Positions 12,314 through 59,300 of a stretch of 64,000 bases of DNA are shown here, piece by piece. How positions within the stretch are numbered: the stretch's first letter is position 1; every line of letters begins with the position of its first letter. Below the pieces are notes generated by a model. That model did no database searches, had not been told where the DNA came from, and was given only the letters and a program-made list of their open reading frames with translations. Position numbers and translations under genes: made by a program. Source of the DNA: an uncultured Thermoplasmata archaeon (GTDB lineage: Archaea > Thermoplasmatota > Thermoplasmata > RBG-16-68-12); assembly GCA_963768855.1 (NCBI GenBank), contig CAVYJM010000006.1, forward strand, positions 448,001 through 512,000. Direction: 5' to 3'.

Positions 12314-13183
12314 GTGCGCAAGATTAAGAGCGGAATCTATGGGCTGAACCCGCTCTTGGACGGCGGCATGAACGAGAACTCGACCACCGTCGTGATCGGC
12401 CGCTCGGGCGCGGGCAAGACGACGCTCGCGACGCAGTTCATCCGCCGCGGACTGCAGGACGGCCAGGAAGGCGTGTTCGTCTCTCTCGACGAGAACAAGG
12501 ACCAAATCATCCGCGAAGCGGTCGAGATGGGCTGGTCCGACATCCTCGATTTCCTGGACGACGAGCTCCTCGTCTTCATCGACGCCTCGGGCCGCGAGTT
12601 CTCCAACTTCATCCGCAAGGAACTCCCGGCGTTCGTCGCGGACTGGAAGGGGAGCAACGCGCGGATCGCGATCGACCCGCTCACCCCGGTCATGTGGGCC
12701 ACGAAGGACCTGTACGAGCAGCGCGATCTGATCGGGTTCATGCTCAAGGAGACCCGCAAGGTCGGCACGGTCCTCTGCACCCTCGAGGAACACGGCGCCA
12801 CGGACCTCACCGGCCCGGAGACCGTGATCCCAATGTACCTCGCGGACTGCGTGATCCACCTTCGGTTCGACCACGGGGCCACGAAGCATACGCGGGAGCT
12901 GCAGATCATCAAGTGCCGGAACAGCCGACACGACCAGGAACCCCATCCCTACGAGATCCTCCGGGGCCTCGGGATCGTCCTCGAGGGCGTCGAGGCGCGC
13001 CGCCCCGCGACGGCCAAGGTGCCGTCCCAGCTCCGCCAGATGCTCCTGACTCGCGCCCTCCCCAAGGACGTGCGCGAGCGGCTCGAGAAGTCGCTCGACG
13101 GGCTCACGGACCAGGACTTCCAGGCCCTCAAGCCCGAACAGGTCCTCGAGCTGATCCTCCAGGAGTATCAGACGGGAGGCTGA
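12314..13183 (+). CDS. KaiC/RAD55-like RecA-superfamily ATPase
   Basis: IKSGIYGLNPLLDGG, intact Walker A GRSGAGKT, FVSLDE, IAIDPL, RELQIIKCR; helical C-terminal extension. Confidence 0.9.
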   Translation: MRKIKSGIYGLNPLLDGGMNENSTTVVIGRSGAGKTTLATQFIRRGLQDGQEGVFVSLDENKDQIIREAVEMGWSDILDFLDDELLVFIDASGREFSNFIRKELPAFVADWKGSNARIAIDPLTPVMWATKDLYEQRDLIGFMLKETRKVGTVLCTLEEHGATDLTGPETVIPMYLADCVIHLRFDHGATKHTRELQIIKCRNSRHDQEPHPYEILRGLGIVLEGVEARRPATAKVPSQLRQMLLTRALPKDVRERLEKSLDGLTDQDFQALKPEQVLELILQEYQTGG

Positions 13184-13184
13184 C

Positions 13185-13880
13185 ATGGCGCGGGGGTTGG
13201 GGCGGGCCCTCCAGACCGTGCTCGCGCAGGAGGGACCTGCCGAGAATCTGGAGATCGAGGGACCGAGCCTCGCGAACGCGAGGCGCCGGCAGGTCTTCCG
13301 GTACCTCTGTCTCCGCCCATGCGCCCGCGTCGGGGAGATCGGCCGGGTCCTCGGTATGTCCCACGCGACGGTCCGGTGGCACGAGCGGGACCTCCTCGAG
13401 AACGGCTACCTCGAGTTCGACACATCGCGCGTATTCCCCCGAGGGCTCATCGATCCGGAGGACGCGGGTCTCTTCGCGCTCCTGGCCGCACCGGGCCGTT
13501 CCCGCCTCCTGATGGCCTGTTACTCGGAGCCCGGGATCTCCCTCCTTGAGCTCGCGAAGGTCGTCGACCTCTCCCGGCAGAGCTCGAGCAAGATCGCCTC
13601 GGAATTCGGCGACGCCGGGCTCGTGACGCTCGTGGAGGACGGACGGTTCCGGCGGCACTATCCGACGGACCTCCTCGCACGGAAGCGCGTGGCGAACCGG
13701 CCCCGCGCCAAGGCGTTCGCCGAGGCATTCGTGAGGCGGCTCACAGACGAGGGTTTGTCGCCGGAGCCGCTTCGCGCGGACGAGTCCGTGATGATCGTTC
13801 GGTTCGGCTCGACCGCGAAGCGCGTCGTCTTGGATGTCCCGCTCGACCCGTACGTCACCGCGTGGAACGCCGAGCGTTGA
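13185..13880 (+). CDS. Double winged-helix transcriptional regulator (COG3398-like)
   Basis: Two HTH units (RVGEIGRVLGMSHATVRWH and SLLELAKVVDLSRQSSSK); 1 nt after the KaiC-like gene. Confidence 0.8.
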   Translation: MARGLGRALQTVLAQEGPAENLEIEGPSLANARRRQVFRYLCLRPCARVGEIGRVLGMSHATVRWHERDLLENGYLEFDTSRVFPRGLIDPEDAGLFALLAAPGRSRLLMACYSEPGISLLELAKVVDLSRQSSSKIASEFGDAGLVTLVEDGRFRRHYPTDLLARKRVANRPRAKAFAEAFVRRLTDEGLSPEPLRADESVMIVRFGSTAKRVVLDVPLDPYVTAWNAER

Positions 13881-13965
13881 GCGAGACATGGTAACGGATT
13901 CGATACTAACCATGATACGCAGGATACAACGCCCTTAATGAGGGACGCCCAACGACTTGTCGAAC

Positions 13966-16900
13966 ATGGACGAGAGCTACCTCGAGTGGCTACGAGTTCT
14001 CCCCGGCTTCTCGACGGAGAAGGCCCGGAAGGTCGCGGAGCGGTTCCCGACCTTCGAGCACCTCCGCGCCGCCATGCCCGAGGAGCTCGCGTCCGTGGAG
14101 GGCCTCACCGCCTACGACCTCGAGGCCCTCCACCGCCTCGTGCGCGATCCCCGGGGCCGCGACGCGGACGGGCATCTCTTCCTCTGTCCGGAGTGCGGCT
14201 CCTTCGCCGGGCCGGCGTCCACGGAGTGCCCCTTCTGCGGCGTCTCCTTCGACGAGGCGGAGCAGGACGCCTCCGTCGAGGAGATCGATGCCTTCCTCAA
14301 GGACGAGGCGGACCCCGCCCTCCTCTGCACGGGCTGCGGCGCGGTCATGGCGCGCGGGTCCACCCGGTGCGACGTCTGCGGGCGCACCTACACCCCGCAG
14401 GAGGCGGCGATCCTTCCCGGCGTCGCCCCCGAGCTCGAGTCGCCTTCCCGGTTCTGCCCCCATTGCGGGGCCTACCTCTCCGCGGAGGTCCCGGAGTGCA
14501 GCGTCTGCGGATTCGACCGCCTCAAAGCTCCCGACGTGGCCGTGAACGGCCACAACGGCAAGGGCCTCGCGGAGGGCTTCCTGAGCCGCTGGCAGCGGGT
14601 CGCGGAGACGCCTGCGTGCACGGAGATGGACCGCCTCGGCGAAGAACTCCTGCAGTACGAGAAGATCCTCGAGGCGGACCCGGCCCTCGAGAAAGTCTGG
14701 GCGAAGCGCGGGCGCGTCCTCGCGAGGATGGGACGCGCGATCGAGGCGGCGGAGAGCCTCTCGAAGGCAGCGGAGCTGGAGCCCGCGAAGGACGAAGAAT
14801 ACCGCCTCGAGGTCCTGGACATACTGAAGGCCAAGGGCGACCTGTCCTTCCTGCCGCCCCGCTGGGGCGAGCCCCGCGCGACCGCCGCCCCGTCCGTCGG
14901 GGATGCGCGCCTGATCGAGGCGCTCCGCCACTACGAGGTCCTCCTCGAGCGGGACCCCGGGATTGTGGTCGCATGGCGGACGAAGGGCGAGATCCTCGAG
15001 CGCCTTGGGCGCGCGGACGAAGCCCGCGTCTGCTTGGAGCGGGCGGATTCCCTCGAGCGCCGGGAAGGCGACCTCCTGAAGGCCCGCGTCTCCGGCCTCC
15101 AGGCGCAAGGCATCGCCCCTTCCGCCTTCTCCCTCTCCGGCCGCACGAACGGCCTCGGTGCGGGTCACGTGAACGGCCGCACGAACGGTCGAACGAACGG
15201 GCGGGTCAACGGGCTCGCGGAAGGGCGCGTGAACGGCCTGACGAACGGCGCCGTGAACGGACTCGGCATGGGCCGCGGGGCGACGAACGGACTCGGTGGC
15301 TTCACGAACGGCCGGACGAACGGGCTCGTGAACGGGAACGGATTCACGAACGGCCGCCGCGGCCGGTACGGGCCCACGCGGATTCCCGCCCAGCCCCACT
15401 GGGCCCGGTCCCTCGTCGGGATCGCGGCGGTCGTGGCCCTCATGGTCCTCGTCCCCGTCCTCGCGAGCATCCTGTCCCCCTCCCCCGGCGCGTACGCGCC
15501 GATCGCGATCGACCACAACTTCGGCGAGTGGAACCGCTTCACGGCGTACGCGAACGCGCCCCCCACGAACCTGAACAACCCGGACATCAACCTCCTCGCG
15601 GTCAAGGTCACCACGGATCCCTCGAACCTCTACGTATACGCGAGGGTCCAGGGGCTCTTCTTCCAGGCCCCGTGGACGAACGGGACGGAGAGCCTCCTCG
15701 TCTTCGTCGACGCTGACCACAACCCGAACACAGGCTACCCCGTCGGGGGCCTGGGCGCGGACCTCCTGGCCGTGGTCACGGGCTGGGATGGCCAGATTCA
15801 GACCATGGGCCGCTACGTGTTCAACGAGACGGGCGTGGTCCGCTCGAACGACTTCCGTCGCTTCCTCTCCGCGGGCTCCGTGGACGCGGCGTTCCTCGGC
15901 GACCAGTCCGAGATGCGCATCCCCCTGGACACGGATCCGGCCCAGGCCCGCTTCCTCGTGTACGCGGCGGACAACCTCGGCAACCGGGACAGCATGGTCG
16001 GTCTGATCCAGCCCGCGCGGCCGACGATCGTCGTGTCCCAGACCACCGTGGCGCCCGACACGGTTCGCAGCCTCTCGAACCCCGTCCTCCGGGTCTCCCT
16101 CTCCGGGATGGGCGGCTCGCCCTCCCTCACCGCGCTCTCCCTCCTGCGACAGGGCACCTCCGCGGACCCCGCTAACGTCTCCCTGTACCAGGATGACGGG
16201 AGCGGGACCTTCAGCGCGAACGACCCGCTCCTCGCCACGGCCTCCTTGTCCACCCCGCTCACGCGCATCCCCCTGAACCTGAGCCTCGTCCGACCCGTGA
16301 CCATGTGGGCGGTCGTTAACTGGACGACCCTCACCGCCAACCGGACGTTCGGGCTCCAGGTCGCCGCGGCCGCGGGCAACGGCACGTCGAGCCTGACGCC
16401 TCCCGACACGAAGCTCGTGTACCTCGGTGGGGCGCCCGCGACGCCCACCGTGGACGGAGCCTTCGGGGACTGGAGCGGCCGGCCCTACGGCGTGGATCCG
16501 CTCGGTGATGTCGTGAACGGCACGAACAGCTACGTCTACAATGCGAACGTGGACCTGCTCGCCGTGGCCGTGGACCGCGCGGCGAACGTGACGGGCTATG
16601 CCCAGGTGGACGGCCGCATGCTCGGCGGCGAGGACATCCCGAACGAGGCGCAGCGGCCGAACCCGACCCCGCCGAACGGGACCCTCAGCAACGTGACCCC
16701 ACCGTACGTCCCCCAGGTCGGGTATGACGTCCTATACGCGTACATCGACGCGGACAACTCCTCCCTTACAGGCCTCCCGGCGTCCTCGGGGACCGCGGAC
16801 TTCGGGTTCGACTACGCCCTCGCGATCACCGGTCGGAACGGCACGGTCTCCTCGAGCGCTCTCTACCGCTACGCCCCAACTGCGAACGCGACGTGGCAGT

Positions 16901-18336
16901 ACGTCCGCCCGATCGCCGCCGCCCTGGACGCGCACCGCGTCGAGTTCGGCGTGGACGCGAGCGCGATGAACCCGTCGGCCGCCTACCGGGTCGTGTTCTA
17001 CTCCACGGACTGGCGGCTCCAGTATGACGTCGCCCTGCCGGACGCCGCCGTGCGCTTCTTCGCCCTCGCGACCCAGGCCGTCGCGAACTCGGTCGTGCTC
17101 AACGAGATCTCCCCGCAGCCGAACCCGGAGTGGGTTGAGGTTGCGAATCCGACTTCCTCGAGCGTGAGTCTGCAAGGGTGGACATTGAACGTCGTGAAGG
17201 CGGGCAAGTTCTCGGTCATCTACACGTTCGGTAACGTCGTCCTAGGTCCCTTCGGATCGGGAACGGAGTACTTCGCCCCACAAGTGGACAAGAACTCCCT
17301 CCCGAACGGACAGAACACGGTCTCTCTGAATAACGGCCCGGTGGTTATGGACCAGACGACGTACGACTCGAGTGTCGGTGGTGCCAAGACGTGGTCCCGC
17401 CTCAAAGACCCAGCCACGGGTCAGCCCATGTCCTCCTACAATGGTGGGAGCGCGTGGTACGTTTCCGCCCTCCCGACGCAAGGCCGGCCAAACGACCGCA
17501 CCCGCCCGATCGTCTCCATCGCAAAGACGGTCAGTGCGGCTCGCGGTACGCCGGGCGATCTGCTGACCTACACGATCTACTTCAACAACACGGGTGACGG
17601 AGTCGCGAAGCTCGTCTGGCTGAACGACACGATGCCGAGCGGCCTCACCTACGTCTCGTCGAGCGTCGCCCCGGCCACGGTCGTCGGTTCCACGGTGAAC
17701 TGGGTCCTGACGAACGTCGCCCCGGGGGCGCACAGCCTCACGGTCTCCGCGGAGATCAACGGCAACGGGGCCGACGGATCGCTCCAGGTGAACCGGGTCG
17801 CCATGACGTATACGGACCAGATCCGGCGGGTCCTCGGGAGCGGCCAGGCGTGGGCGAACGTCACGGTGACGCGGCCCCAGATCACGATCGTGAAGACGGT
17901 CACCCCGGCGAGCGCGACGGCCGGCCAGACGGTCACCTACACGATCTACTACAACAACACGGGCTCGTCCAATGCGGGGACGGTCCACATCGTCGACATC
18001 CTCCCGAGCGGGCTCACGTACACGGGCAGCAACCCGGCCCCGACCGCCGTCAGCAATCGCACCTACTACTGGAACTTCTCGGACGTGACGCCGGGTTCCC
18101 ACAGCATCACGCTGACCGCGGTCGTGAACGCGGGCACGCCCACGGGCAACCTCGTGAACTGGGCGTTCCTGAACTACACGTCCATCCGGGGGTTCGTGCT
18201 CGGAGGCAGCGCCGCGTCCGCGATCGTCGCCATCCCCGAGCTCAGCGACTTCCTCTTCGTCCTTGCGGTGCCCACCCTGATCCTCGGGATGCGGTGGCGG
18301 ATTCGCCGCTCGAAGGGAGAGAGCAAGAAAGGGTGA
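13966..18336 (+). CDS. Giant membrane-spanning protein 1: HhH + Zn ribbons + TPR + (T/V)NG repeats + TM + extracellular DOMON/CBM9-like x2 + lamin-tail-like + DUF11 x2 + PEF-CTERM-like tail
   Basis: 1456 aa from MDESYLEW. LPGFSTEKARK HhH, three CxxC pairs, TPR-like helices, TM about 15409-15474, IDxxFxxW and DxDxxxxTG motifs twice, VVLNEI..PEWVEVAN, two IxKTV..TYTIYxNNTG units, IPEL-hydrophobic-RWRIRR tail. Confidence 0.85.
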   Translation: MDESYLEWLRVLPGFSTEKARKVAERFPTFEHLRAAMPEELASVEGLTAYDLEALHRLVRDPRGRDADGHLFLCPECGSFAGPASTECPFCGVSFDEAEQDASVEEIDAFLKDEADPALLCTGCGAVMARGSTRCDVCGRTYTPQEAAILPGVAPELESPSRFCPHCGAYLSAEVPECSVCGFDRLKAPDVAVNGHNGKGLAEGFLSRWQRVAETPACTEMDRLGEELLQYEKILEADPALEKVWAKRGRVLARMGRAIEAAESLSKAAELEPAKDEEYRLEVLDILKAKGDLSFLPPRWGEPRATAAPSVGDARLIEALRHYEVLLERDPGIVVAWRTKGEILERLGRADEARVCLERADSLERREGDLLKARVSGLQAQGIAPSAFSLSGRTNGLGAGHVNGRTNGRTNGRVNGLAEGRVNGLTNGAVNGLGMGRGATNGLGGFTNGRTNGLVNGNGFTNGRRGRYGPTRIPAQPHWARSLVGIAAVVALMVLVPVLASILSPSPGAYAPIAIDHNFGEWNRFTAYANAPPTNLNNPDINLLAVKVTTDPSNLYVYARVQGLFFQAPWTNGTESLLVFVDADHNPNTGYPVGGLGADLLAVVTGWDGQIQTMGRYVFNETGVVRSNDFRRFLSAGSVDAAFLGDQSEMRIPLDTDPAQARFLVYAADNLGNRDSMVGLIQPARPTIVVSQTTVAPDTVRSLSNPVLRVSLSGMGGSPSLTALSLLRQGTSADPANVSLYQDDGSGTFSANDPLLATASLSTPLTRIPLNLSLVRPVTMWAVVNWTTLTANRTFGLQVAAAAGNGTSSLTPPDTKLVYLGGAPATPTVDGAFGDWSGRPYGVDPLGDVVNGTNSYVYNANVDLLAVAVDRAANVTGYAQVDGRMLGGEDIPNEAQRPNPTPPNGTLSNVTPPYVPQVGYDVLYAYIDADNSSLTGLPASSGTADFGFDYALAITGRNGTVSSSALYRYAPTANATWQYVRPIAAALDAHRVEFGVDASAMNPSAAYRVVFYSTDWRLQYDVALPDAAVRFFALATQAVANSVVLNEISPQPNPEWVEVANPTSSSVSLQGWTLNVVKAGKFSVIYTFGNVVLGPFGSGTEYFAPQVDKNSLPNGQNTVSLNNGPVVMDQTTYDSSVGGAKTWSRLKDPATGQPMSSYNGGSAWYVSALPTQGRPNDRTRPIVSIAKTVSAARGTPGDLLTYTIYFNNTGDGVAKLVWLNDTMPSGLTYVSSSVAPATVVGSTVNWVLTNVAPGAHSLTVSAEINGNGADGSLQVNRVAMTYTDQIRRVLGSGQAWANVTVTRPQITIVKTVTPASATAGQTVTYTIYYNNTGSSNAGTVHIVDILPSGLTYTGSNPAPTAVSNRTYYWNFSDVTPGSHSITLTAVVNAGTPTGNLVNWAFLNYTSIRGFVLGGSAASAIVAIPELSDFLFVLAVPTLILGMRWRIRRSKGESKKG
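15139..15354 (+). repeat. (T/V)NG tetrapeptide repeat tract in giant protein 1
   Basis: GRTNGLGAGHVNGRTNGRTNGRVNGLAEGRVNGLTNGAVNG...FTNGRTNGLVNGNGFTNG, about 13 copies just before the TM helix. Confidence 0.95.
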
Positions 18337-18401
18337 GTGGCTGACAGCGTTCCATGGATCGGCGGCCGTTAGAGCGGCACGGTTCGTCGTCCACCACAAG
18401 G

Positions 18402-18563
18402 ATGGACGGCTAGCGTACCTAGGTCGCCGGCCCAAGCCCCGGTCAGGCCGGGGCGGGCTTCCCACGGGCTCGCGCACCGTAGTACCGCAGGGAACGTGGG
18501 CGGGCTTAACTTCCGGGTTCGGGATGGGACCGGGTGTATCCCCGCCGCTTTGGCCGTCAAACC
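18402..18563 (-). rRNA. rrf: 5S rRNA, stand-alone, with a 36-nt expansion segment
   Basis: Conserved CCCGGTCCCATCCCGAACCCGGAAGTTAAGCCCGCC core, helix I GACGGC/GCCGTC, loop E GGTAC/GGGAA; about 160 nt instead of about 122; ends approximate. Confidence 0.95.
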
Positions 18564-18609
18564 ACTGCTGACGACGCCCAGAGTAAACGCGCTATATCAG
18601 GGTTTTGGT

Positions 18610-19566
18610 CTATGGGTGCGGCAGGACGGCCGTCAGGAAGCCGAGCATCACGTTCCCGACGAAGAACGCGAGGAGGAACCCCGCGAACAGGGGCACGAGG
18701 AACGGGACCTTGGGCTGGACCCACACCCGGTCCGCGCCGGCCGCCCGCAGCTTCGCGACCTCCTCGGACTCGTCCTTCGCGCGGGAGGGGAAGAGAACCG
18801 TCACCCGCTCCCCGTGGCGGTCCACGCGCTCCATGAGCCAGACGTGGGGTGGGAGATGGTCCAGGGGCGCCTTGGTCCCGAACAGCGCCTGCGGGAGCTC
18901 GAAGTCACCCCGGATCGCATTCACGAGCAGATACGCCACGGGGATGGCGAGGAAGAGGACCGCGGCGTTGACGAACACAACCAGGGAGAAGGGGAACAGG
19001 GTCCCCATGGCGTTCGCGACGTTCGAGGGCAGGACGAGGACCGGGAAGGGTGCCAGGTCCGGATAGTAGGGCACGAGCAGGGTTAGGGCCATCATCGCCT
19101 TCGTATCCGCTCCACCCCGGAGCAGGCCCAGTTGGAAGAATCCTTGGTAGACGACGAGCAGGACGGGCATGGATGCCAAGGCCGACAACGGAATCGTTCG
19201 ACTTGGGAGGCCGGCATGCGGGAGGAAGGGGAGTGGGTTCTCCGGGAGCAGCAGCGCCACGACGAAGGAGACGGTCGCGACGCCCAGGACGAGGACCCGG
19301 ACGGGCCGGAGATGGATCCCGTCCTCGTCGAGGATGGGCTTCCCGTAGAACACGGCGAAGAACAGGATGGCCGCAGAGCCCAGCAGAAGCCACCGGTTCA
19401 GACCCGCTTCCATCGCCACGAGGTCGACGGCGAGGACCGCGAGCCCCACGCTCCCGAGCGCGATCCAGACCGGATCCCGGACCCGACGTGTGCGCACGTC
19501 GAGCACCGCCGCGATGGCGAGGAACCCCGCGCCCACGACGAGGCGTGCGACGGAGAACGCGTCCAC
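18610..19566 (-). CDS. A24 family prepilin/preflagellin peptidase (FlaK/PibD-like)
   Basis: AVLDVRTRRV (first Asp), GGADTKAMM (second Asp), C-terminal WVQPKVPFLVPL. Confidence 0.9.
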   Translation of the reverse strand: MDAFSVARLVVGAGFLAIAAVLDVRTRRVRDPVWIALGSVGLAVLAVDLVAMEAGLNRWLLLGSAAILFFAVFYGKPILDEDGIHLRPVRVLVLGVATVSFVVALLLPENPLPFLPHAGLPSRTIPLSALASMPVLLVVYQGFFQLGLLRGGADTKAMMALTLLVPYYPDLAPFPVLVLPSNVANAMGTLFPFSLVVFVNAAVLFLAIPVAYLLVNAIRGDFELPQALFGTKAPLDHLPPHVWLMERVDRHGERVTVLFPSRAKDESEEVAKLRAAGADRVWVQPKVPFLVPLFAGFLLAFFVGNVMLGFLTAVLPHP

Positions 19567-19779
19567 GCGCGCGCATCGGGCGCTCCTTATTTCAAGCGTT
19601 CGACTCGAGAATCTGGCGCGGGGTCGAAGTGATCGTGAAAGCGCGTCCGCTTCGCCTCGTCCCGCGCGGCTGGCATGAGGTCCATCCTCGCGATTCAGTC
19701 GCAAACGACTAAATACCGCCTGTCGAATTGCATCCCGCATCGGGAGGAATCGCGCGGTCCTCCCTGCGGTCCCACTGCC

Positions 19780-20331
19780 ATGAGCGAGCCCCGACGGATG
19801 AAGGTGAAGATCTGCCTCGTCGGCGAGCACGCCGTCGGCAAGACGTCCCTCATCAAGCGGTACGTCCTGAACGAGTACGACGACCGGTACATCGTCACCC
19901 TCGGAGCGAAGGTCTCCAAGAAGGAGATGCTCCTGCAGCCGAAGGGCCGCGACGCCGTCCAGATGGACATGACGATCTGGGACATCATGGGTTCCAAGGG
20001 CTTCCGCGAGCTCCTGCGGGAGGCCTATTTCCACGGCGCCCAGGGAATCCTGGCCGTCGCGGACATCACGCGCTACGACACCCTGGAGGACCTCGACTCG
20101 TGGGTCGAGTCCGTCTTCCGCACGGTCGGGGAGATCCCCGTCGTCTTCACGATCAACAAGATGGACCTGAAGGACCAGGCCGCGTTCAGCGAGGAGCAGG
20201 TCAAGCAGGCCACGGAGGCCTTCGACGCCCCGTACTTCTACGCGTCCGCGAAGACGGGCGAGAATGTGGAGTCCGTGTTCCGCATCCTCGGCGAGACGAT
20301 CGTCAAGGGCGGTCCGTCGGCCGAGGACTGA
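19780..20331 (+). CDS. Rab/Roc-like small GTPase (second paralog)
   Basis: GEHAVGKTS, YIVTLG, WDIMGS, NKMD, SAK. Confidence 0.92.
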   Translation: MSEPRRMKVKICLVGEHAVGKTSLIKRYVLNEYDDRYIVTLGAKVSKKEMLLQPKGRDAVQMDMTIWDIMGSKGFRELLREAYFHGAQGILAVADITRYDTLEDLDSWVESVFRTVGEIPVVFTINKMDLKDQAAFSEEQVKQATEAFDAPYFYASAKTGENVESVFRILGETIVKGGPSAED

Positions 20332-20373
20332 GGCGTTCCATAGCCTCAAGTATCCGCCGCAAATTCTCCGGGC

Positions 20374-27060: not shown

Positions 27061-27224
27061 GGGCCCGTAGCTCAGCTAGGTAGGATGGCGATCCAGCCGT
27101 CCCTAGAAAGAGCATCCGGCTTTTAACCGCTTTTCGTCAAGAAGAGCGGAAAGAAACCGGGTGGTCCGGGGTTCGAACGGGCCCCGCGGCCCGCGCCGGG
27201 TCCCCGAAAATCCCCGCGGGCCCG
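27061..27224 (+). tRNA. tRNA-Lys(TTT) with three introns (27082-27108, 27126-27155, 27178-27210)
   Basis: Removing the three segments gives a perfect 74-nt cloverleaf GGGCCCGTAGCTCAGCTAGGTAGAGCATCCGGCTTTTAACCGGGTGGTCCGGGGTTCGAATCCCCGCGGGCCCG; each intron has a 4-bp central helix and two 3-nt bulges. Confidence 0.95.
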
Positions 27225-50680: not shown

Positions 50681-50833
50681 GTTCGATTCCTCCTGGTGGA
50701 AGACCATTCTGACCAATAATGTGTTTGCAGTTCTATATAAACATTGTTAATTCGGTCCCCCCCGCGTACGTTGCCGCGGCTGGACAACCGCGGCCCTCAA
50801 AGTTCTTAGGCCGGAGGAATCCTGCCTCGCTGG

Positions 50834-51654: not shown

Positions 51655-51660
51655 GGGGCT

Positions 51661-51920
51661 CCCTCGCCAGGTGGCGGGCTGGAGGTCACCCTGGTGCTCG
51701 GGACAGGGCGGCCGTGGCGGCTCGGTAGTGATAGCATCTACTTCAATCTTCGCCATCGGTCCGGGGCGATGCGGCCCGGGCACGGCCCCTGGAGGGTAGC
51801 GGGGGTCGCGTAGCCTGGTGGTTCTGCGCGTAGAGAATCTCTCGTGAGAATTGGACGGGACGCTTCTTGACCCCCCAGGTCTACGACGGTTAGACTTCCC
51901 ACCCCCTTCGAGCCCATCCG
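51661..51920. ncRNA. Candidate structured RNA or leader of unknown identity
   Basis: About 260 nt without a credible ORF, with several 5-9 bp complementary segments (see findings); strand unresolved. Confidence 0.3.
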
Positions 51921-51932
51921 CTAGAGGTTCCC

Positions 51933-52553
51933 ATGGATACCGAGACGTTCCGACAGGCCGCCACCCTCCTTTCCGGCGAGTACAGCCTCTCAATCCTGCG
52001 GGAGCTCCGGGACGGGGGGTGGCACCTCTCGAGCGAGGTCGCCCGGGCGCTGAACATCCACGTGTCCACGGCGTCCCGGTTCCTCCAGCGCCTCGCGGAG
52101 CTCGGCCTCGTGGAGCGGCGGCGGCACGACGCCCGGACGTCGGAGTACCGCGTCCGCTCCGCCCGGGTGTCCCTCGAGGTCGACCTGACGGACGACTCCG
52201 GCCCGTTGCGCGAGGCGGTCGACTTCTATGTCGCGTACTTCCAGTTCCTCTTCCAGGAGATTCGCCATCTCGGACTCCCCAAGATCGAGGGCGAGCTGGA
52301 GCACACCCTGGTCGCGGAACACCAGGAGCTCCGCTCCGTCGTGTTCGAGCAGATGATCGCGGGCAGCCAGGGCGGCATCGACCACCTGCGCGACCTCATG
52401 GCCGCGTTGCACCGAGACCTCTGGGACGTGTGCGCCCAGAGCCTCGGCCGGCCGACGGCCCGCAGGGTGTTCCAGACGGCCCTCCAGGAGGCGATCGGCG
52501 TCCACCCCGACCTCGCCCTCCGCTGCGGACTCGCGCGTCCCCTTGAGGCGTGA
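51933..52553 (+). CDS. ArsR-like winged-helix regulator with helical C-terminal domain
   Basis: [44 protein letters not shown]; stop overlaps the SD of the next gene. Confidence 0.85.
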
Positions 52554-52558
52554 TCCCC

Positions 52559-55500
52559 ATGGTGCGGCTGGCCAGCGGGATTGAGGGATTCGACGACCTC
52601 GTGTCCGGGGGTCTCCCGGCCGACGCGAGCGTCATCTTGCAGGGCCCCCCCGGTCAGGAGAAGCTCGCATTCGCGCTCGCCTTCCTGGCGGAGGGGCTCC
52701 GCACGGGCGGGTCGGGCTTGGCGGTCGTTGCCTCCCAGTCCCCTGAATCATTCCTCCGGACGCTCCGCGGCCTCGGGGTCGACGTGGACCTCGTGCTCCG
52801 GGAGAACCGGCTCCGAGTCGTGGATTGGTATTCGTGGGGTGAGGAGACCGTCACGGAGGTCGAGGAACGCGGGGTCATCCTTCGGTCCTCGGTGGACCTG
52901 GCAAACGCCGGCGCTGCGGTGAGCCGGGCGATTGCGGGTCTTCCCGGAGAAGGCCCGAAGCGCGCGATCGTCGAAATGCTCTCTCCCGCATTGAACATCT
53001 ACGAGCTGAGTCAGGTCTTCGCGTTTGCTCAATCTACGAAGCGCAAGTTCGACCGCTTCCACCTCACCGCTCTGTTCCTCGTAGAGAAGGAGATGCACAC
53101 CGCGTCCGTCCTGTCGACACTCCACCAGCCGTTCGACGGGGTTGTCGAGATGGAGCGGACCCGGAGCGGGGACCGCATCCTGCGGAAGATCGGCGTGCTC
53201 CATTTGAGGGACACTCGCCCCCCATCCGACTTCGTCCCGTTCGAGTTCACGGAGCAAGGCATCCGCGTGGGCCTCCGGCCGCCTGCCCCCGTCTCAACTC
53301 CCCCCGTCGGTCCCTCGCCCGTGCCTCGTCCCACCCCCCCGCGGCCCCGTCCCCTGGAGGGAACCTCGAACCGCGTGCGCTTGATCATGGAGATCGCGCG
53401 GGAGCGGCTTCGCCAAGACCCCGAAGACTGCGACGCGCTGTTCTCCCTCGCCGCCGCCCTCGCGACCGTGGACGATCCGCGGGATGCGGTCCGGACTCTC
53501 GAGCGCCTAGAGACGATCAACCCGAACTACCCGGGACTCTGGGCGTTCGAGATGAAGCTCTTCGCCCGCCTGGGCGACGCGGAACGGTGGCAGCGGAGCC
53601 GGAAGAAGGCGCTCGCCGAGTCGCCCATTTCGGACAGCGTCGGGTCGCCCCCGTGTCCCTTCTGTCACGAACCTGTCTCCGCCGGGAGCGCGCAGTGCCC
53701 GCACTGCATGGCGGACCTCCGAGAGGAAACGGACATGCTCCACGGGCTCGAGAAGCTCGTCCGGGATACGGTTCAGGAAACGGTGCCGGAAGCGGGAGAG
53801 GCGAAACCGCCCGCCCCCCAAGCGCCGCCGGTCCCCTTGCGCCCGGTGCCACAGTCGCCGGCGCTGAGACCCGTCCCTCGAGCGAAGGGAATGACGAACG
53901 GCCTCGTCTTGGAGCGGCGGCCGGTGCGACCCGTCCCCGTCACCAAGCGCGGCCGGACGAATGGACTGACGAACGGTCTCGGCGGTCGTACGAACGGGTT
54001 GACGAACGGACTCCGCGATCGAACGAACGGACTAACGAACGGCCTGGGACGCACGAACGGCTTGACGAATGGGGTGGGCCGGACCAATGGTCTCACGAAC
54101 GGCGTGGGCCGGACGAACGGGCTCTCGAAGGGACTCGAGAAGGCGGCGCGCTCCCGTGGATTCCTCGGGAACACCGGCATGCCGAAATGGCAGCGGGTCG
54201 CCCTGCCCGCCGCGCTCGTCGCCCTCTTGGTGCTCCTCCCGCTGGTCTTCCTGTGGAGCTCCCCGGTCACGCCGCGCCCCATCCAGATTGACGGCAACTT
54301 CGCCGACTGGACGGCCCAGTCCCTCGTCAGCGTCCCGTCGTCGGTATCGCCGAACCCGAACATCCAGATCGCCCGGATCGGGGTCGCCGACAACCTGGGC
54401 GACCTTGCCTCTACGTGGAGGTCACGGGCACGATCCTCGAGGGCGGCGGCCCCTCCCCCGGGCTCATGGACGCGGCCCGTATCTTCCTGGACACGGACAA
54501 TTCGAGTTCGACCGGATATCGGATCGGAGGCATCGGAGCAGATCGGCTCCTCGAGGCGTCGGGATACGGGGGTCATGTGCTGTCGAGCATCCTCTACGAG
54601 TTCGACGCGAATCGGGATGCCCGCGACTGGAGCGGCTGGATCAAGGGAACGCCGGTCCCAGCGGCCGCCTCCGGCTCCCGACTCGAGGCCCAGGCTTCGT
54701 GGATCGAGCTTGGAGGCGGGTCGGTCCCCGTCCGCGCGACGGTCGACACGCAGGCATGGGACGGCCAGACGGACACCTCCTCCCTGATCGTCTCACCCTC
54801 TGAGGGCACACTCGCGATCGACCAGGCGTCCGTCGCCCCGGCGGTCCTCTCCGGTGCGGACGTGCCTCTCCTGACCCTCAACGCCACGGCCCTCGGAAAG
54901 GGGGCGGCGTTCAACTCCCTCACCGTCGAGCTCCAGGGCACGGCCCCGTTCAGCGCCGTCTCCTCGCTCCGGCTCGTTGCCGCGGGCGGCATCGACTTGG
55001 TCCAGGCCAACCCCGCGGGCCGCGATGTGACCTTCCGGTTCGCGACGCAGACGATCGACCCCGCGACCCCGCGATCCTACACGATTCTCGGGGACGTCGC
55101 GGGTTCGAGCGGAGACACCTTCGGCGTGCGGGTCGCCTCGCCGGATGCGATCGGAATGTTGGATGGCGTCGCCTGCGTGCGCAGCCTGCCCTCGACCGCC
55201 TCGTTGAGCTACCTGGGTGCGATCCCGGGGGTGCCCCGAATCGACGGGGGGTTCGCCGAGTGGTCGTCCACGATTCCCGACGCGGTCGGCGAGGCGTCAA
55301 CCCGCGGGAACGCGAACATCGACGTGGCCCACCTCGGCGCCATCCCGAACGCCCCTTCGCTCTACCTCTATATGGATGTCTCGGGGCGAATGTTCGCAGG
55401 GACGAGCCAGCCGGATGCTCCCCAGCCCGCCCCCCTGACGAACGCGACGCCTGTGGCCGACACGGATCGCGACACGGTCCCGGATACCCTCGATCCAATG

Positions 55501-58500
55501 CCCTTCGACTTCAACAACGACGGCACCCCTGACGCGCGAACGAACGGGGACTACGACGGGGACGGCATCACCGACTACGGGTTCCCGGGCGGGACGGATG
55601 CCTGGCTGAACACCACGCTGCCCGCCAGCTTCCCCGCCCCGTACGCAGGGCTGAGCGTGAGCGTATACATCGGGCCGACGGTACGGCCGCCCGCGCTCGG
55701 CGAGGACGTCCTCCGGTTCTTCCTCGACATCGACAACCGCACGTCGACCGGCTTCTCGATTGGCGGAATCGGCGCGGACCGGCTCGTCGAGATCCACGGG
55801 AAGGACGCCCAGGTGTCCCAGTCCGCCCTGCTCGCGTTCACGGGCTCCTATCCGGGAGAATGGTCGTGGAGCGCGATCTCCCCCGTGACGGTCGCCACGG
55901 GCGCCCGCGCGGTCGAACTCGCGGTGAACCTTAGCGCATCCCGGGTCTACCTGGAGATGGGAGACTTCTGGGGCGGCGTGGACGCATCGAGCCCAGTTTC
56001 CCCCGCGACCCTGGCTGTCGCATCCCTCTCATCGATGACGTCGTCTTCGTTCCGCCAGGCCCCCGCCACATCGGCCTTGGCCGTTCCGTGGTACCAGGAT
56101 GGTCCCCAGGCGTCCGCGACCCTGATCGATCCTGGATCGAGCTCGTCGACCTCCCTCTACAACCAACAGCGGAAAGTGGTCCGCGCGCCCGACGTCGCCG
56201 GCCAGACCGGCCTGCGATGCGACGAACGCGGACGGATGCTGGTACGTCGTCCTGAACGATCAGCTGAGCGAGGACACGTTCACGTCCGCTCCATCCACGG
56301 AGACCGTCGCCACCGGCACGAAGGTGTCCGGGACGTTCTTCCTCCGGCGTCGATTCGAGCAACAACGCGTACATCCAGTACCGCGAGGCGAACACAGGCA
56401 CCACGACGGTCACGGCCAAGAACCCGACCGCAGCGGGGACGAACCCGGTATGCGACTGGGCGACCTGCGCGAGCGGCGAGACCTCGGACAACGCATACAC
56501 GACCTCGAGCCAGAACAACCAGATACTTTCGTTCAAGTCCTTCGGCTTCGCCGTCCCGAGCGGGGCCGCGATTACCCAGGTCCGAATCGGCATCGAGGCG
56601 TTCCAGGCGGCGGGCGGAGACGACCAGATCACCGGCATCAAGCTTTCGTGGAACGCCGGGACGCCGAGCTGCAGCAACACGCTCGCGGGCGACCCGTTCG
56701 TCCCGGTGACTCCGAACGATCCAAACACGTACTCGTACTTCGACTCGACCGCCTGTACGGGCCACACTTGGGCTCAAGCCGACTTCGCCACCGGAACCGA
56801 CAACATCGCCTTCCAGGCCACGTACAAGAGGTCCGGAGGCGTGGCAACCGTGATCTCGGTCGATGCAGTCGTCGTCGAGGTCTCCTACGTTCCCGGCTCG
56901 TACCAGATGTCCGTCCGGTACGACTGGACCTCCGTCCCCGCAGGCGATGCGGTCACCCTGAACGTCGAGGCCTATCACGGCTCGGACGAGAACGTCAACA
57001 TTCAGGTCCTCACGCCTCCGTCCACCTGGAACACCCGGATCACGGTCACGGCCACGACCGATTCGAACCTGGCGCAGACCTACGCCCTCACCACGATCGA
57101 GTTCAACGCAGGCTCGCCCTCCATCCGCTTCGTCGACAGCCTCGGTGCGGACACGACCCAGACGGACCTCTGGGTCGATACGGCCGTCCTTGTGACCACC
57201 ATGACGAGGTCGCCCGGCACGGAGACGCTCACGACAGGTTCGCGCGTGAGCGGAACGTTCCCCACAGGCATCGGTGCCGCGGATGGCACTTACATCCAGT
57301 ACCGCGAGGCGAACACCGGGACCACAACGGTCACGGCCAAGAACCCGACGGCGGTGGGCACGGCCCCCGCGTGTACGGCCGGGGCATGTGCCAGCGGCGG
57401 AGCCTCGGACAACGCGTACGCCACGGTGAACAACAATCAACTCCTCTCCCTGAAGACTTTCGGCTTCGCCGTCCCGAGCGGGGCCACGATCACCCTAGTC
57501 CGCATCGGGATGGAAGCGTTCCAGGTTGCGGGCGGAGACGACCAGATCGCCGGGATCAAGCTGTCGTGGAACGCCGGCGCTTCCCCTTGTGGCAACACGC
57601 TCTCGGGCGATCCTTACACGCCGGTGAACACAGGCGACCCCAACACGTACCACTATTTCGACACGACGACGTGCACAGGGCACACGTGGGCCGCGGCGGA
57701 CTTCGCGAGCGGCACGGACAACGTCGCGTTCCAGGCCTCGTATTCGAAGGTCGGGTCCCCGACTCAGATCTCGGTGGACGCCGTAGCCGTGGAGGTCACA
57801 TACCTTCCGGCCACCTACCAGGTCTCCGTCCGGTATGACTGGACGGGCGTGCCGGCCGGGGACGCGCATACGCTGACCGTCCAAGGCTACCGCCAGGACG
57901 AGGACATCAGTGTTCAGGTGCTCACCCCGCCCTCCACCTGGACCACTCGGCTCACGATCTCCTCGGCGTCCAACGCTCTCTACACTTACCCCCTCACCAC
58001 GACGGAGTACAACGCCGGTTCGCCAGCGGTTCGGTTCGTCGACGCGGCCGGCGCAGACACCACGCAGTCCGACTTCTGGCTCGACCAAGTCGTCGTCACG
58101 ACCCGGACCGTGTGGGACCGCGTGATCCTGATGCGCAGCGCGGACGTGGGAGGTACGATCTGGGGATCCCAGGTCATCCTGGCCTCCGGGCGGACCGGGG
58201 ACGATCCGCTCCTCCACGCGTACGATTCCTCGGTACCGGCCCTCGCAATGGACTCGGCTGGCTTCCTCCACATCGTCTGGGTCTCCTCCGCGAGCCCGGG
58301 CAACCAGGCCACGATGGACCGGGTCCGGTATGTGAAGAGCACGGTGGCCTACCCGAACCAGGGCCAGATCGCGCTCGCGTCCACCTGGCAGGCTGTGACC
58401 TCGGTGGACGCTGCGAACCCGGGCACCATGCCGACCGTCTCGACGGACAGCTCGAACTACCCGCACATCGCGTGGAGCGGCTCGAAGACGAGCGGATCCG

Positions 58501-59300
58501 TCTTCTACAAGAACCAGTACGGGGGCTCGTGGCGGCCGACGGTCACCTGGGGGACGACCTACACCGGGATCTCCGTGGACGTATCGCCGACGACCAACTA
58601 CGTGAGCCTTGGGCGCTACTACGAGGCGGCCCCGAACGAGATTCAGTATACGGCGTGCAAGAACGTGGCCGTGAGCAACTGCGACGCATCCGCGGAGTTC
58701 ACCAAGTGGGACGGGACCGCAGGATACGACACGGTGGCGACCGGGGTCGAGAGCCACGTCTATCCGAGCCTCGCGACCACGTACGATGCGAACGGGGATC
58801 TCTGGATCGCGTACGCCAAGGACGTGGACGGGAGCACCCGCGCGATCTACGCGCGCCTCCTCGACTACCCGAGCGCAGGGTTTGCGGCCCCGGAGACGGT
58901 GGACGCCCTGACGGGCACGATCTTCACGCGGCCCGTGATCGGCGTGGACAGCTCGAACCGCGTCCACGCGCTCTACGTGGCCACGGCGGGGCCCCAGCTG
59001 TACTACAAGATGCGGTCGGGCGGAGTATGGGGATCGCGCCAGCTGATGGACGCATCCTCCGACGATCCGTCGATCATGGTCCGCGCCCCCAACGACGCGA
59101 CGTACGGATCCACGCCCGGGGCGATCTACTGGAAGTCGACCACATCCGGGACGTACTTCGTGGCGATCCCCGAGTTCGAGTCGGTCGCCCTGCCGATCGT
59201 CGCCATCCTGGGTCTCGTCCTCGTGCTCCGCCGCAGGGCTTCGAGAAAGACCGGCTCCTGCGATGCGGGTGCGGAGACGTCCCGCAACCGACCGCGCTAG
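52559..59300 (+). CDS. Giant membrane-spanning protein 2: degenerate KaiC-like domain + TPR + Zn ribbon + TNG repeats + TM + DOMON/CBM9-like x2 + two 307-aa repeats + PEF-CTERM; three apparent frameshifts
   Basis: Joined from ORFs 52550..54787, 54415..56709 and 56706..59300 plus a short frame-2 segment 56213-56338. Needs +1 nt at 54410, -1 at 56209 and -1 at 56340, giving 2246 aa. Ends VAIPEFESVALPIVAILGLVLVLRRR. Confidence 0.8.
53888..54121 (+). repeat. TNG tetrapeptide repeat tract in giant protein 2
   Basis: GMTNG...GRTNGLTNGLGGRTNGLTNGLRDRTNGLTNGLGRTNGLTNGVGRTNGLTNGVGRTNG, 12 copies. Confidence 0.95.
56297..58110 (+). repeat. Two tandem about 307-aa extracellular repeats
   Basis: Units start at about 56297 and 57219; both contain YIQYREANTGTTTVTAKNPTA, FGFAVPSGA, GGDDQI.GIKLSWNAG, CTGHTWA, VLTPPSTW. 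Confidence 0.9.

Follow-up and report, generated by a model that had tools for sequence, protein, structure and literature searches.

The two giant genes found in the 64,000-nucleotide stretch of DNA analysed here (the window), from an uncultured wetland archaeon of the Thermoplasmata, are best explained as two paralogs of a large, previously undescribed family of bitopic surface glycoproteins of Thermoplasmatota. Sequence comparison of their neighbourhoods supports a non-random association of these giants with KaiC-like ATPase modules and wHTH regulators, and through this gene set the cell surface is probably coupled to gene control. Unrelated housekeeping genes (RNA polymerase subunits, transporters, Cdc48 and others) fill the 33 kb that separate the two loci.

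Locus A consists of a KaiC-like gene, a double-wHTH gene and giant 1 (13966-18336, a single open frame of 1456 aa), with all parts found where an earlier note on this DNA had placed them:

12314..13183, + strand: free single-domain KaiC-like ATPase, 289 aa (PF06745 match, 123.8 bits)
13185..13880, + strand: double winged-helix protein whA, 231 aa (HTH_24 at residues 33-77, MarR_2 at residues 106-157)
13881..13965, + strand: whA-giant 1 spacer, 85 bp (alignment of 17 orthologous spacers)
13966..15138, + strand: giant 1 cytoplasmic head, with an HhH-like domain, three Zn ribbons and a TPR-like helical domain (DZR, Zn_Ribbon_1 and TPR matches)
15139..15408, + strand: giant 1 juxtamembrane segment, 13 (T/V)NG repeats and then a basic stretch
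15409..15480, + strand: giant 1 single internal TM helix (AF2 helix 477-503), with an Arg-rich segment N-terminal to it
15493..17043, + strand: giant 1 membrane-proximal extracellular core, with a CBM9-like sandwich, an Ig/CBM-like sandwich and another CBM9-like copy that carries a loop insertion
17074..18228, + strand: giant 1 distal modules, a lamin-tail domain (PF00932, residues 1040-1126) and two DUF11 repeats (PF01345, 89.3 bits in two stretches; TIGR01451)
18229..18336, + strand: giant 1 C-terminal sorting tail, with IPEL, a hydrophobic helix and a basic end (PEL variant of PEF-CTERM)

The motifs of the locus A KaiC are intact (Walker A GRSGAGKTT, SLDEN and IDPLT), and these motifs are kept in 28 orthologs of the host order and two of other classes. 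The protein ends in a helical extension of ~55 aa, and its PDB sequence matches are KaiC, PH0186 and SSO2452. A TATA-like CTTTTAATG lies ~24 nt 5' of its GTG start codon, and a gap of 1 bp separates its stop codon from the start of whA, a gene found upstream of the giant in 30 of 30 giant-1-type loci sampled. The spacer behind whA contains a GT(T/C)AACGG element, GATA-type repeats and a TATA-like CCCTTAAT ~24 nt before the giant 1 ATG; its length and blocks are conserved in 14 genus-level sequences (of the 17 aligned), pointing to a candidate operator together with a putative leaderless promoter of the giant's own.

In the AF2 model of the giant 1 head, the helices at 3-60 have a pLDDT of 80-90 and the TPR-like region (202-379) exceeds 90. 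HHH_2 is sub-threshold in this head (21.8 bits), and HhH families are among the precomputed matches of orthologs. The TNG segment is predicted to be disordered (pLDDT ~30, model residues 379-476). For the TM helix we predict an N-terminus inside and a C-terminus outside, because of its Arg-rich N-terminal flank and the distribution of N-x-S/T sequons, with none before the helix (none in the head) and 21 after it. The AF2 model of the core (56 sequences) reaches a pLDDT of 88.9 and a pTM of 0.86; the second domain (191-338) resembles a sialidase N-terminal domain (VIA-align, Z 11.5). The tail does not reach the threshold in a TIGR03024 search; at its position, orthologs of other genera have IPEF or VPEF.

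Locus B has the proposed order of a wHTH gene and a giant whose KaiC-like N-terminus begins at 52550, the whB stop and giant 2 start overlapping by 4 bp. Giant 2 had also been taken for one ORF, which did not hold, as single-base frame changes occur at ~54409, 56209 and 56339; once these are mended, the 6.7-kb gene encodes ~2250 aa. The features are:

51933..52553, + strand: wHTH protein whB, 206 aa (HTH_20, MarR and MarR_2 matches)
52550..53272, + strand: giant 2 N-terminal KaiC-like domain, apparently inactivated (iKaiC; PF06745, 85.7 bits)
53399..54289, + strand: rest of the giant 2 head and anchor, with TPR-like helices, a CPFC/CPHC Zn ribbon, a Pro-rich linker, TNG repeats and the TM helix (weak TPR_14 and DZR_2 matches)
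~53888-54124, + strand: 12 TNG repeats of giant 2 (repeat count)
~54215-54289, + strand: giant 2 TM helix (from sequence)
54290..55975, + strand: giant 2 extracellular core, homolog of the giant 1 core (BLASTP, tblastn), with frameshift 1 inside at ~54409
54405..54415, + strand: frameshift 1, one T missing (relatives' contigs from runs X1, X2 and X7 carry an extra T behind 54409)
56205..56213, + strand: frameshift 2, one extra base (relatives' contigs from runs X1 and X7 are without one base at 56209)
56290..59165, + strand: giant 2 distal modules, two repeats of ~300 aa each, then ~350 aa without family match
56335..56343, + strand: frameshift 3, one extra base (relatives' contigs from runs X1 and X7 are without one base at 56339)
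59166..59300, + strand: giant 2 PEF-CTERM sorting tail and stop codon (TIGR03024, 27.8 bits, cut-off 23)

In the iKaiC domain, Walker A reads GPPGQEKL (a dead P-loop), the catalytic Glu pair is replaced and the Walker B Asp is a Glu. A Pfam search of the distal modules gave no match, and an atlas feature search gave BNR_4 at low share only, leaving a BNR/propeller-like nature as a lead. The copy of giant 2 in the assembly may be either a recent pseudogene or a consensus error. We regard it as an even call whether the gene is dead, with the system present once only in the source strain: three independent single-base frameshifts in one 6.7-kb gene speak for this, as do the intact state of all other long genes of the window (PolD, RNA polymerase subunits B, A' and A'', Cdc48) and the intact reading at these sites in 95–99% identical strains from three wetland studies, compared as contigs only. 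On the other hand, the sites are all short homopolymers, the source genome is a metagenome bin with 7.7% contamination, and locus B is strain-variable, so that consensus errors are possible.

Both giants follow a common plan of a Zn-ribbon/TPR cytoplasmic head, TNG repeats, one TM helix, a core of CBM9-like, Ig-like and again CBM9-like domains, variable distal modules and a PEF/PEL-CTERM tail of the archaeosortase type. The layout put forward earlier was recovered in these elements, including the IPE tails, but not in the order of the head modules, which is HhH, Zn ribbons, TPR in giant 1 versus KaiC-like, TPR, Zn ribbon in giant 2. The TNG-type repeats (13 versus 12) stand directly before a basic stretch and the TM helix, and such repeats precede the TM helix in nearly all relatives sampled. 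Homology of the extracellular cores, likewise proposed before, is borne out by a BLASTP alignment over 346 residues (E 1e-20), with weaker matches for the second copy; the core HMM matches three times per giant, and the giant 2 core is the best match in the genome to the core family profile (E 3e-185). Each tail, IPEL or IPEF, continues with a hydrophobic helix and a basic end. A single archaeosortase-family gene is present in the genome, and no more than three of its proteins end in a PEF/PEL tail, among them the two giants; the giant 2 tail is the only TIGR03024 match of the genome at E 0.01 or better. The system as a whole had been described as present twice. The giants are paralogous; their partners are not orthologous between the loci, as whA and whB have no detectable sequence similarity (E 23) and the KaiC domains of the two loci are 28% identical over 65 residues.

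Loci of relatives were picked solely by similarity to the extracellular core. KaiC and double-wHTH genes were found directly upstream in all 29 assessable giant-1 orthologs, from genera at 48–71% GC, and in a reverse test starting from KaiC relatives a wHTH gene and a giant followed downstream in eight of eight assessable loci. The enrichment of KaiC and wHTH genes predicted by the earlier note is thus present, and the neighbours of the giants are not random. In the host order, each locus is embedded in a larger syntenic block that includes unrelated genes: PolD, along with thioredoxin, 5S rRNA and a Ras-like GTPase, around locus A, and Cdc48 and PAN, along with HSP20 and DUF2240, around locus B. 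The 29 cases therefore go back largely to a single inherited arrangement and do not count as 29 separate events. Two genomes of other classes have the triad as well, but lack the local synteny (no PolD or thioredoxin nearby). Outside the host order, only five of the 19 core-bearing loci sampled have KaiC nearby, and in complete small genomes the giant is found without it. Each of the 17 whB orthologs directly precedes either a giant with a fused KaiC domain or a free KaiC gene that is followed by such a giant; the locus B giant keeps its position, with lengths from 1544 to 2742 aa between genomes.

A fused KaiC domain is found in 28 of the 39 paralogous giants, often with a wHTH gene or free KaiC gene upstream; these giants occur in tandem arrays and in several genomic neighbourhoods that are unrelated to each other. 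The free-versus-fused (Rosetta-stone) pattern noted before is therefore real, but the fused domain is, judging from its motifs, an inactivated KaiC paralog in every case examined and not the free enzyme: all 27 fused domains examined (giant 2 and 26 relatives) have a dead P-loop with the same degenerate motifs. The free KaiC proteins examined beside giants all keep Walker A and the catalytic Glu, and look catalytically active. TPR-KaiC fusions are also present elsewhere in the genome.

We tentatively propose, at somewhat less than an even chance, that the giants work as a surface receptor or scaffold coupled to KaiC modules and a wHTH regulator. In type A (locus A), an intact single-domain KaiC and a double-wHTH protein encoded just upstream would work with the head; in type B (locus B), a dead KaiC domain would reside inside the head, with a different wHTH protein encoded just upstream. 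The giant would be a membrane-anchored receptor or scaffold with a flexible TNG tether of ~100 residues. Engagement or clustering of the ectodomains on a glycan or surface could raise the local concentration of tethered heads and so alter the assembly or the ATPase/phosphorylation state of KaiC-type oligomers; this in turn might change the amount of free wHTH regulator, including at the conserved promoter region before the giant gene. The signal relay through the TM helix suggested in the earlier note is weakened, since the tether of giant 1 is predicted to be disordered (pLDDT ~30), making a conformational piston or lever through the helix unlikely. The direction of information flow, glycan sensing and physical contact are what we infer, and the promoter/operator-like spacer fits equally well with the giant as a regulated output rather than a sensor.

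As such an output, the giant could be a surface adhesin or envelope glycoprotein, with KaiC and wHTH as a local expression switch that times the synthesis of a costly protein, and the head used for anchoring, quality control or feedback rather than for sensing (inside-out). This is consistent with the conserved promoter region that immediately follows the wHTH gene and contains operator-like repeats, the adhesin-like distal modules (LTD and DUF11), the variable length of the locus B giant at a fixed position, as in a diversifying surface protein, and the many relatives without any KaiC. We nevertheless consider it rather unlikely, as the KaiC-like domain inside 28 of 39 paralogs argues for post-translational coupling and not transcriptional control only, and an adhesin would not need conserved 400–550-residue heads of protein-interaction modules. 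Alternatively, in an archaeon without a cell wall, the giants could be the main proteins of the envelope or of cell-cell contact, anchored at each end, with heads that connect the envelope with nucleic acid or with structures in the cytoplasm and KaiC-type ATPases acting in assembly or remodelling, comparable to ArlH of the archaellum motor, a KaiC-like protein working in a membrane machine (PMC10983859, PMC8978795). The internal TM helix combined with a PEF-CTERM tail, the HhH-like domain and Zn ribbons of the head, and the small number of archaeosortase substrates encoded in the genome (two or three) agree with this structural role; it seems quite unlikely, however, because it leaves the constant wHTH regulator gene beside the KaiC module unexplained, the fused KaiC domains are predicted to be unable to hydrolyse ATP (degenerate motifs), and no further assembly or secretion genes are conserved alongside loci A and B. 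Very improbable, in our view, is an adjacency without function, produced by inherited synteny and many KaiC paralogs. PolD DP2 is as constant beside locus A as KaiC, many genomes have Cdc48 and PAN on the flanks of locus B, and ~25 KaiC-like domains occur in the genome (~1 per 110 kb); yet a gene picked at random would have a KaiC gene within 2.5 kb in ~2% of cases, KaiC-giant fusions occur in many separate contexts and tandem arrays, the triad is kept in other classes without synteny, and the genes are closely packed at both loci (the 1 bp gap and 4-bp overlap).

As putative receptors or scaffolds, the giants combine features of several known systems. The first core domain is CBM9-like by modelled fold: it matches CBM9 (1i82; VIA-align, Z 11.9, 149 residues, rmsd 3.5, model residues 11-186), Sas6 (7uwu, Z 11.0) and the ethylbenzene dehydrogenase gamma subunit (2ivf, Z 10.2) among CBM9/DOMON-like sandwiches, with 149-162 residues aligned, but the best identity is 19%, and a Pfam search of the giants gave no CBM9 match at E 0.01 or better. 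The module belongs here to a receptor-like protein anchored in the membrane rather than to a glycoside hydrolase.

In bacteria, some membrane-tethered regulators and single-pass receptors, for example anti-sigma factors, ToxR-like proteins and receptor kinases, use clustering or sequestration to signal. The giants resemble these in logic only: one TM helix connects a binding module outside the cell with a protein-interaction module in the cytoplasm, and a transcription factor gene lies alongside. The cytoplasmic partner of the giants, in contrast, is a KaiC-type module, and domain searches of the giants found no kinase, HAMP, anti-sigma or ToxR-type domain.

With the PEF-CTERM/archaeosortase C sorting system (TIGR03024, TIGR03762; Haft et al. 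2012, as cited in PMC5244752) the giants share a PEF (or PEL) motif near the C-terminus, followed by a hydrophobic helix and a basic end, alongside the single exosortase/archaeosortase-family gene of the genome, which matches the ArtC model below cut-off. Known substrates, however, use an N-terminal signal peptide, whereas the giants have a 480-550-residue cytoplasmic head and an internal TM helix, and would therefore stay anchored at both ends.

KaiC-like ATPases have been proposed as archaeal signalling hubs (Makarova, Galperin and Koonin, mBio 2017, as cited in PMC5847659, PMC10983859), and the KaiC-like protein CirA represses motility in Haloferax volcanii (PMC10983859). In line with the earlier note, a literature search found no published description of the giant, KaiC and wHTH architecture, and the 2017 proposal of KaiC hubs may list a related arCOG. 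As the hubs are outlined in the citing papers, the likeness lies in single-domain KaiC and iKaiC domains that are fused to wHTH regulators and to membrane or sensor proteins, or are encoded beside them. What differs is the partner, here a giant surface glycoprotein that has a PEF-CTERM tail, a core of CBM9-like fold, a tether of TNG repeats and a head with Zn ribbons and TPR; the giants with their KaiC modules would extend the proposed archaeal KaiC signalling hubs to giant surface glycoproteins.

Loci A and B both have the gene content and order that the earlier note had read from the sequence, namely a KaiC-like gene, a winged helix-turn-helix (wHTH) gene and giant 1 at locus A, and a wHTH gene followed by the KaiC-headed giant 2 at locus B. 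The features are as follows (window positions):

12314-13183: free, single-domain KaiC-like ATPase of 289 aa (PF06745, 123.8 bits)
13185-13880: whA, 231 aa with two winged-helix domains, starting 1 bp after the KaiC gene
13881-13965: whA-giant 1 spacer of 85 bp
13966-18336: giant 1, 1456 aa
51933-52553: whB, wHTH protein of 206 aa

The frame of giant 2 overlaps the whB stop by 4 bp and opens with a further KaiC-like domain (PF06745, 85.7 bits; the cut-off of this model is 26.6). The 33 kb separating the two loci encode RNA polymerase subunits, transporters, an SNF2 helicase, KsgA, Cdc48 and similar genes, all of which are intact and unrelated to the present finding. A 5S rRNA gene lies on the minus strand at 18442-18561, 105 bp past the giant 1 stop codon (Rfam, 120/120 model positions over 120 nt, 73 bits); this alignment shows no expansion segment of ~35 nt. 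At 27061-27224, a candidate site of a tRNA-Lys with three introns, ARAGORN and Rfam (gathering threshold) gave no match, which speaks neither for nor against such a gene. A gene for a Ras/Roc-family small GTPase (19675-20331) is syntenic with locus A in most of the order, at 76-89% identity, and may or may not be a member of the locus A module. The source bin comprises 2.87 Mb in 24 contigs with 67% GC and 7.7% contamination, and near-identical DNA is present in wetland metagenomes from three studies.

The head of giant 1 consists of an HhH-like start, three Zn ribbons and a TPR-like domain, and is followed by 13 (T/V)NG repeats, an Arg-rich stretch, a single transmembrane (TM) helix and a conserved core of ~540 residues. 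Its distal part contains a lamin-tail domain and two DUF11 repeats, and ends with IPEL, a hydrophobic helix and a basic tail. Giant 2 has a head with the KaiC-like domain, TPR-like helices and one Zn ribbon, then 12 TNG repeats and one TM helix, beyond which lie a core homologous to that of giant 1, two repeats of ~300 residues, ~350 residues without family match and a PEF-CTERM tail. The NG-repeat tether, TM helix, core and PEF tail are family-wide features. A topology with the head inside the cell and the remainder outside is supported by the Zn ribbons of the head, by positive charges ahead of the helix and by the distribution of N-x-S/T sequons, of which giant 1 has none in its 484-residue head and 21 in its 915-residue ectodomain. 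Compared with the latter, the last 820 residues of giant 2 (56706-59165) contain no sequon and have no family match; an atlas feature search with the last 350 residues gave a weak BNR-like lead and nothing else. Ordinary secreted S-layer or adhesin genes were considered as an identity for the giants and rejected on account of the fused KaiC domains and of the long heads, which are cytoplasmic and conserved.

Both the shared extracellular core and the variable distal modules, as claimed from inspection, were borne out. The two cores align significantly (BLASTP E 1e-20), and at the fixed site between Cdc48/HSP20 and DUF2240/PAN (51933-59300 in the window, fetched loci L061-L086) the giant ranges from 1544 to 2742 aa among related genomes, its distal modules being exchanged while head and core are retained. 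In an AF2 model of the giant 1 core (56 homologs; pLDDT 88.9, pTM 0.86), domain 1 resembles CBM9 and DOMON-like sandwiches (VIA-align: 1i82, Z 11.9, 149 residues aligned, rmsd 3.5, 19% identity; Sas6, Z 11.0), domain 2 is an Ig/CBM-like sandwich, and part 3 is a diverged second copy of domain 1 with an inserted loop. VIA-align was more informative than Foldseek, which with the whole 543-residue model returned only generic multi-sandwich matches (TM < 0.25; integrin legs, sialidases), and the Pfam CBM9 model had no match in the giants at E <= 0.01. The first domain of the core is CBM9-like in its modelled fold, and its carbohydrate binding is putative. The AF2 model of the giant 1 head is confident for the HhH-like and TPR-like domains; the TNG segment (residues 379-476) has a pLDDT of ~30, and this tether is predicted to be disordered.

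The free KaiC of locus A has a Walker A motif (GRSGAGKTT), the catalytic Glu (SLDEN) and the Walker B Asp (IDPLT), and is by these motifs an active-type, single-domain KaiC-family ATPase. The consensus GxSGxGKTT, SLDEN and (I/V)DPLT is kept in every free KaiC beside giant-1 orthologs (28 in the order, two in other classes, and the one in the window), and the free KaiC genes of loci with KaiC-fused giants (type B) likewise retain the P-loop lysine with Ser/Thr and the Glu pair. Walker A of the fused domain of giant 2 is degenerate (GPPGQEKL): its Ser/Thr and second Gly are missing, and Ser-rich residues stand in place of the Glu pair. The same holds for all 26 fused domains of relatives: the second P-loop Gly is replaced, mostly by Glu, and the Ser/Thr and the Glu pair are lost. 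Judged by these motifs, the N-terminal domain of giant 2 is an inactivated KaiC-like domain, plausibly serving for binding or oligomerisation rather than as an enzyme. The free-versus-fused arrangement, previously described as a Rosetta-stone pattern, is therefore real, but the link that it provides joins the giant to an inactivated KaiC paralog. TPR-KaiC and KaiC-GTPase fusions also occur elsewhere in the genome, indicating that KaiC domains join such scaffold modules independently of giants. Six or seven KaiC-like genes are clustered at G000:C6:934001-946000 (L121; same contig as the window), among them fusions of TPR with KaiC (702 aa) and of KaiC with an Arf/Ras GTPase (610 aa).

Among the 79 genomes of the order, 63 encode the core, frequently in many copies; of 401 genomes sampled across the phylum, 36 do. 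Sixty loci from the order were picked by core similarity only, and KaiC, the core and the two wHTH families were mapped in them with profiles from this genome and the fetched loci. The order KaiC, double wHTH, giant was found in 28 of the 30 best-hit giant-1 ortholog loci; of the two exceptions, one contig ends before the KaiC position and the other has a 100-N gap there, with the C-terminal tail of KaiC still present. Thus KaiC and the double wHTH lie upstream in 29/29 assessable giant-1 orthologs, from genera of 48-71% GC, and a reverse test starting from free KaiC relatives found a wHTH gene and a giant downstream in 8/8 assessable loci. The paralog set comprises 39 giants in 30 loci. A fused KaiC-like domain is present in 28 of these giants, many of which have a whB-type gene, a free KaiC gene or both ahead of them, and such giants form tandem arrays of up to four (L090). 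As for the others, three are second giants that directly follow a gene of these kinds, two are cut by contig ends, and five have no KaiC within reach. With ~25 KaiC-like domains in the genome, roughly one per 110 kb, chance adjacency would be ~2%.

These counts are weakened by synteny. Within the order, locus A always lies beside PolD DP2, usually with thioredoxin, and often has the 5S rRNA and Ras-family GTPase genes downstream; locus B is flanked by Cdc48/HSP20 and DUF2240/PAN in many genomes. Since both loci are embedded in larger syntenic blocks, the 29/29 reflects mostly one inherited arrangement. Independent support for the association comes from the fusions and from KaiC-fused giants in several other genomic contexts; the full triad also occurs, with neither PolD nor thioredoxin beside it, in two genomes from other classes. 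That KaiC and wHTH genes accompany the giants by mere synteny is very improbable. Outside the order, KaiC is nearby in 5/19 sampled loci, and three complete genomes of 1.4-1.7 Mb have a short-headed giant without KaiC. Heads of giants outside the order again contain Zn ribbons, TPR, HhH or DUF835; at locus L101 (G082:C10, 4724-8770), from another class of the phylum, a giant with an N-terminal DUF835 domain (108.8 bits) has a free KaiC gene directly upstream. The co-occurrence with KaiC and wHTH genes expected by the earlier note therefore holds for orthologs, reverse test and fusions within the order, with the reservations of inherited synteny and of the lower count outside it, and the link is a feature of a large subset of the giant family.

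The whA product (P0002) matches HTH_24 (32.8 bits, cut-off 21.9) and MarR_2 (31.6, cut-off 27), and the whB product (P0004) matches HTH_20 (30.8 bits, cut-off 27) and MarR (30.3, cut-off 24.6); by these domain matches, both are predicted MarR/ArsR-like wHTH transcription regulators. In 14 genus-level orthologs the whA-giant 1 spacer has retained its length of 85 bp together with several sequence blocks, namely a GT(T/C)AACGG element, GATA-type repeats and a TATA-like CCCTTAAT (at ~13941 in the window) ~24 nt ahead of the ATG. A similar TATA-like box (~12282) lies ~24 nt ahead of the start codon of the locus A KaiC gene, suggesting by inference two leaderless transcription units, KaiC-whA and giant 1, with the spacer as candidate operator and promoter of the latter. 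In the window itself the spacer reads GGTAACGG, and a scan for GTYAACGG accordingly found no copy ahead of either locus. Prediction of a complex between the dead KaiC domain of giant 2 and the whB protein scored 0.00 against a mark of 0.32, and carries no weight either way.

The reading of giant 2 switches frame at ~54409, ~56209 and ~56339. Comparison with contigs of 95-99% identical, related strains from wetland metagenome runs shows one extra T behind 54409 (X1, X2, X7) and one base fewer at both 56209 and 56339 (X1, X7), which are exactly the differences restoring a single frame of ~2250 residues. At the same locus of the closest genome in the collection, the frame is unbroken over 2098 residues, counted from stop to stop. 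Going by these intact frames, the gene of giant 2 is functional at the population level. The copy in this bin is a recent real pseudogene or has been broken by assembly or consensus error. The confinement of all three breaks to a single gene, with PolD, the RNA polymerase subunits and Cdc48 undamaged, speaks for the former; the strain-variable locus, the contamination of the bin and the short homopolymers at the breaks speak for the latter. A crude genome-wide frameshift scan based on codon-position GC returned 55 candidates and missed the three known sites, and consequently gives no error rate. Programmed frameshifting was rejected, in view of the plain intact frames in close relatives at all three sites.

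The giant 2 tail matches TIGR03024 (PEF-CTERM; 27.8 bits, cut-off 23); that of giant 1 (IPEL) falls below this model, its orthologs having IPEF or VPEF. Typical PEF-CTERM substrates have an N-terminal signal peptide for secretion, whereas the giants lack one and begin with a cytoplasmic head of 480-550 residues, so that the internal TM helix has to serve for their export; it is unusual for a PEF tail to occur on a protein that has such an anchor and lacks a signal peptide. PEF-CTERM signals have been assigned to archaeosortase C (PMC5244752). The sole exosortase/archaeosortase-family gene of the genome (G000:C6:634536-636119; TIGR04178, 50.4 bits, cut-off 23) has ArtC as its best subfamily, below cut-off (TIGR03762, 45.4 bits vs 100). 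PEF/PEL-type tails occur in three ORFs of the genome only, the two giants and a small ORF of 178 codons stop to stop (G000:C18:131754-132287, minus strand), the only other candidate archaeosortase substrate. The archaeosortase family model is found in 49/79 genomes of the order, including a family without giants, yet in just 15/37 incomplete genomes of the own genus, and its phyletic profile across the 79 genomes shows no usable correlation with that of the giants.

The architecture, the conserved gene association, the pattern of dead and active KaiC, and the CBM-like fold and disordered tether of the giant 1 models are features of the system as observed. We tentatively propose, with a little less than even confidence, that the giant serves as a receptor or scaffold and that its heads would recruit KaiC-type oligomers, which in turn would control the wHTH regulator. 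A signal relayed through the TM helix as a conformational push, as previously suggested, is not favoured, since a tether as flexible as predicted for giant 1 would convey any signal by clustering, recruitment or release. It is unlikely that the giant is mainly a regulated output of a KaiC-wHTH switch, a reading in which the candidate operator ahead of giant 1 would have its place, and distinctly unlikely that it has a structural or assembly role.

Developed further, the receptor or scaffold proposal would describe a new class of archaeal surface receptors, in which contact of a CBM-like ectodomain with a glycan or a neighbouring cell would cluster the flexibly tethered heads. Once clustered, the heads would either nucleate KaiC-type oligomers or poison them, thereby switching a dedicated wHTH transcription factor. 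In this form the proposal is somewhat doubtful. Heads of giants with a free KaiC (type A) would act on the active KaiC, and those of type B have the dead KaiC built in. If true, KaiC would take the place of kinases in a pathway from receptor to gene, and the extracellular modules of this pathway would be exchangeable. Asn-Gly is the most deamidation-prone dipeptide, and, more speculatively, the invariant Asn-Gly repeats might provide the tether with a slow chemical timer.

To our knowledge, few routes are recognised by which information passes from the archaeal cell surface to the genes, and the role of the many archaeal KaiC-like ATPases is largely untested. The giant family offers a concrete, widespread and well-delimited case of a receptor-like surface protein, an active/dead KaiC module and a regulator, in which natural split and fused forms indicate which parts should touch. 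The giants occur in abundant uncultured wetland and soil Thermoplasmata, in which attachment, contact between cells or interactions with viruses may be governed by surface glycoproteins whose outer modules can be exchanged, and they represent an unusual use of an archaeosortase signal, on proteins already anchored in the membrane.

In public records, members of the family are named hypothetical, 'lamin tail domain-containing', 'DUF11 domain-containing' or 'uncharacterized repeat protein'. Literature searches, including PEF-CTERM and iKaiC (inactivated KaiC), found no paper on this giant/KaiC architecture, in agreement with the view that it has no described counterpart. As represented in papers citing it (PMC5847659, PMC10983859), a computational proposal of 2017 assigned to KaiC-like ATPases and inactivated KaiC domains, beside wHTH and membrane proteins, a role as hubs of archaeal signalling. 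Studied KaiC-like proteins include CirA and ArlH (PMC10983859). The giants and their neighbours differ from classical signalling proteins such as histidine kinases, MCPs and Ser/Thr receptor kinases, in that no HisKA/HATPase, HAMP, MCP-signal or protein-kinase domain was found in them with Pfam and NCBIfam. Cyanobacterial circadian KaiC consists of two tandem domains, whereas the locus A KaiC has a single one and scores far below the cut-offs of NF006799 (105 bits vs 408) and TIGR02655 (56 vs 546), setting it apart from the circadian type.
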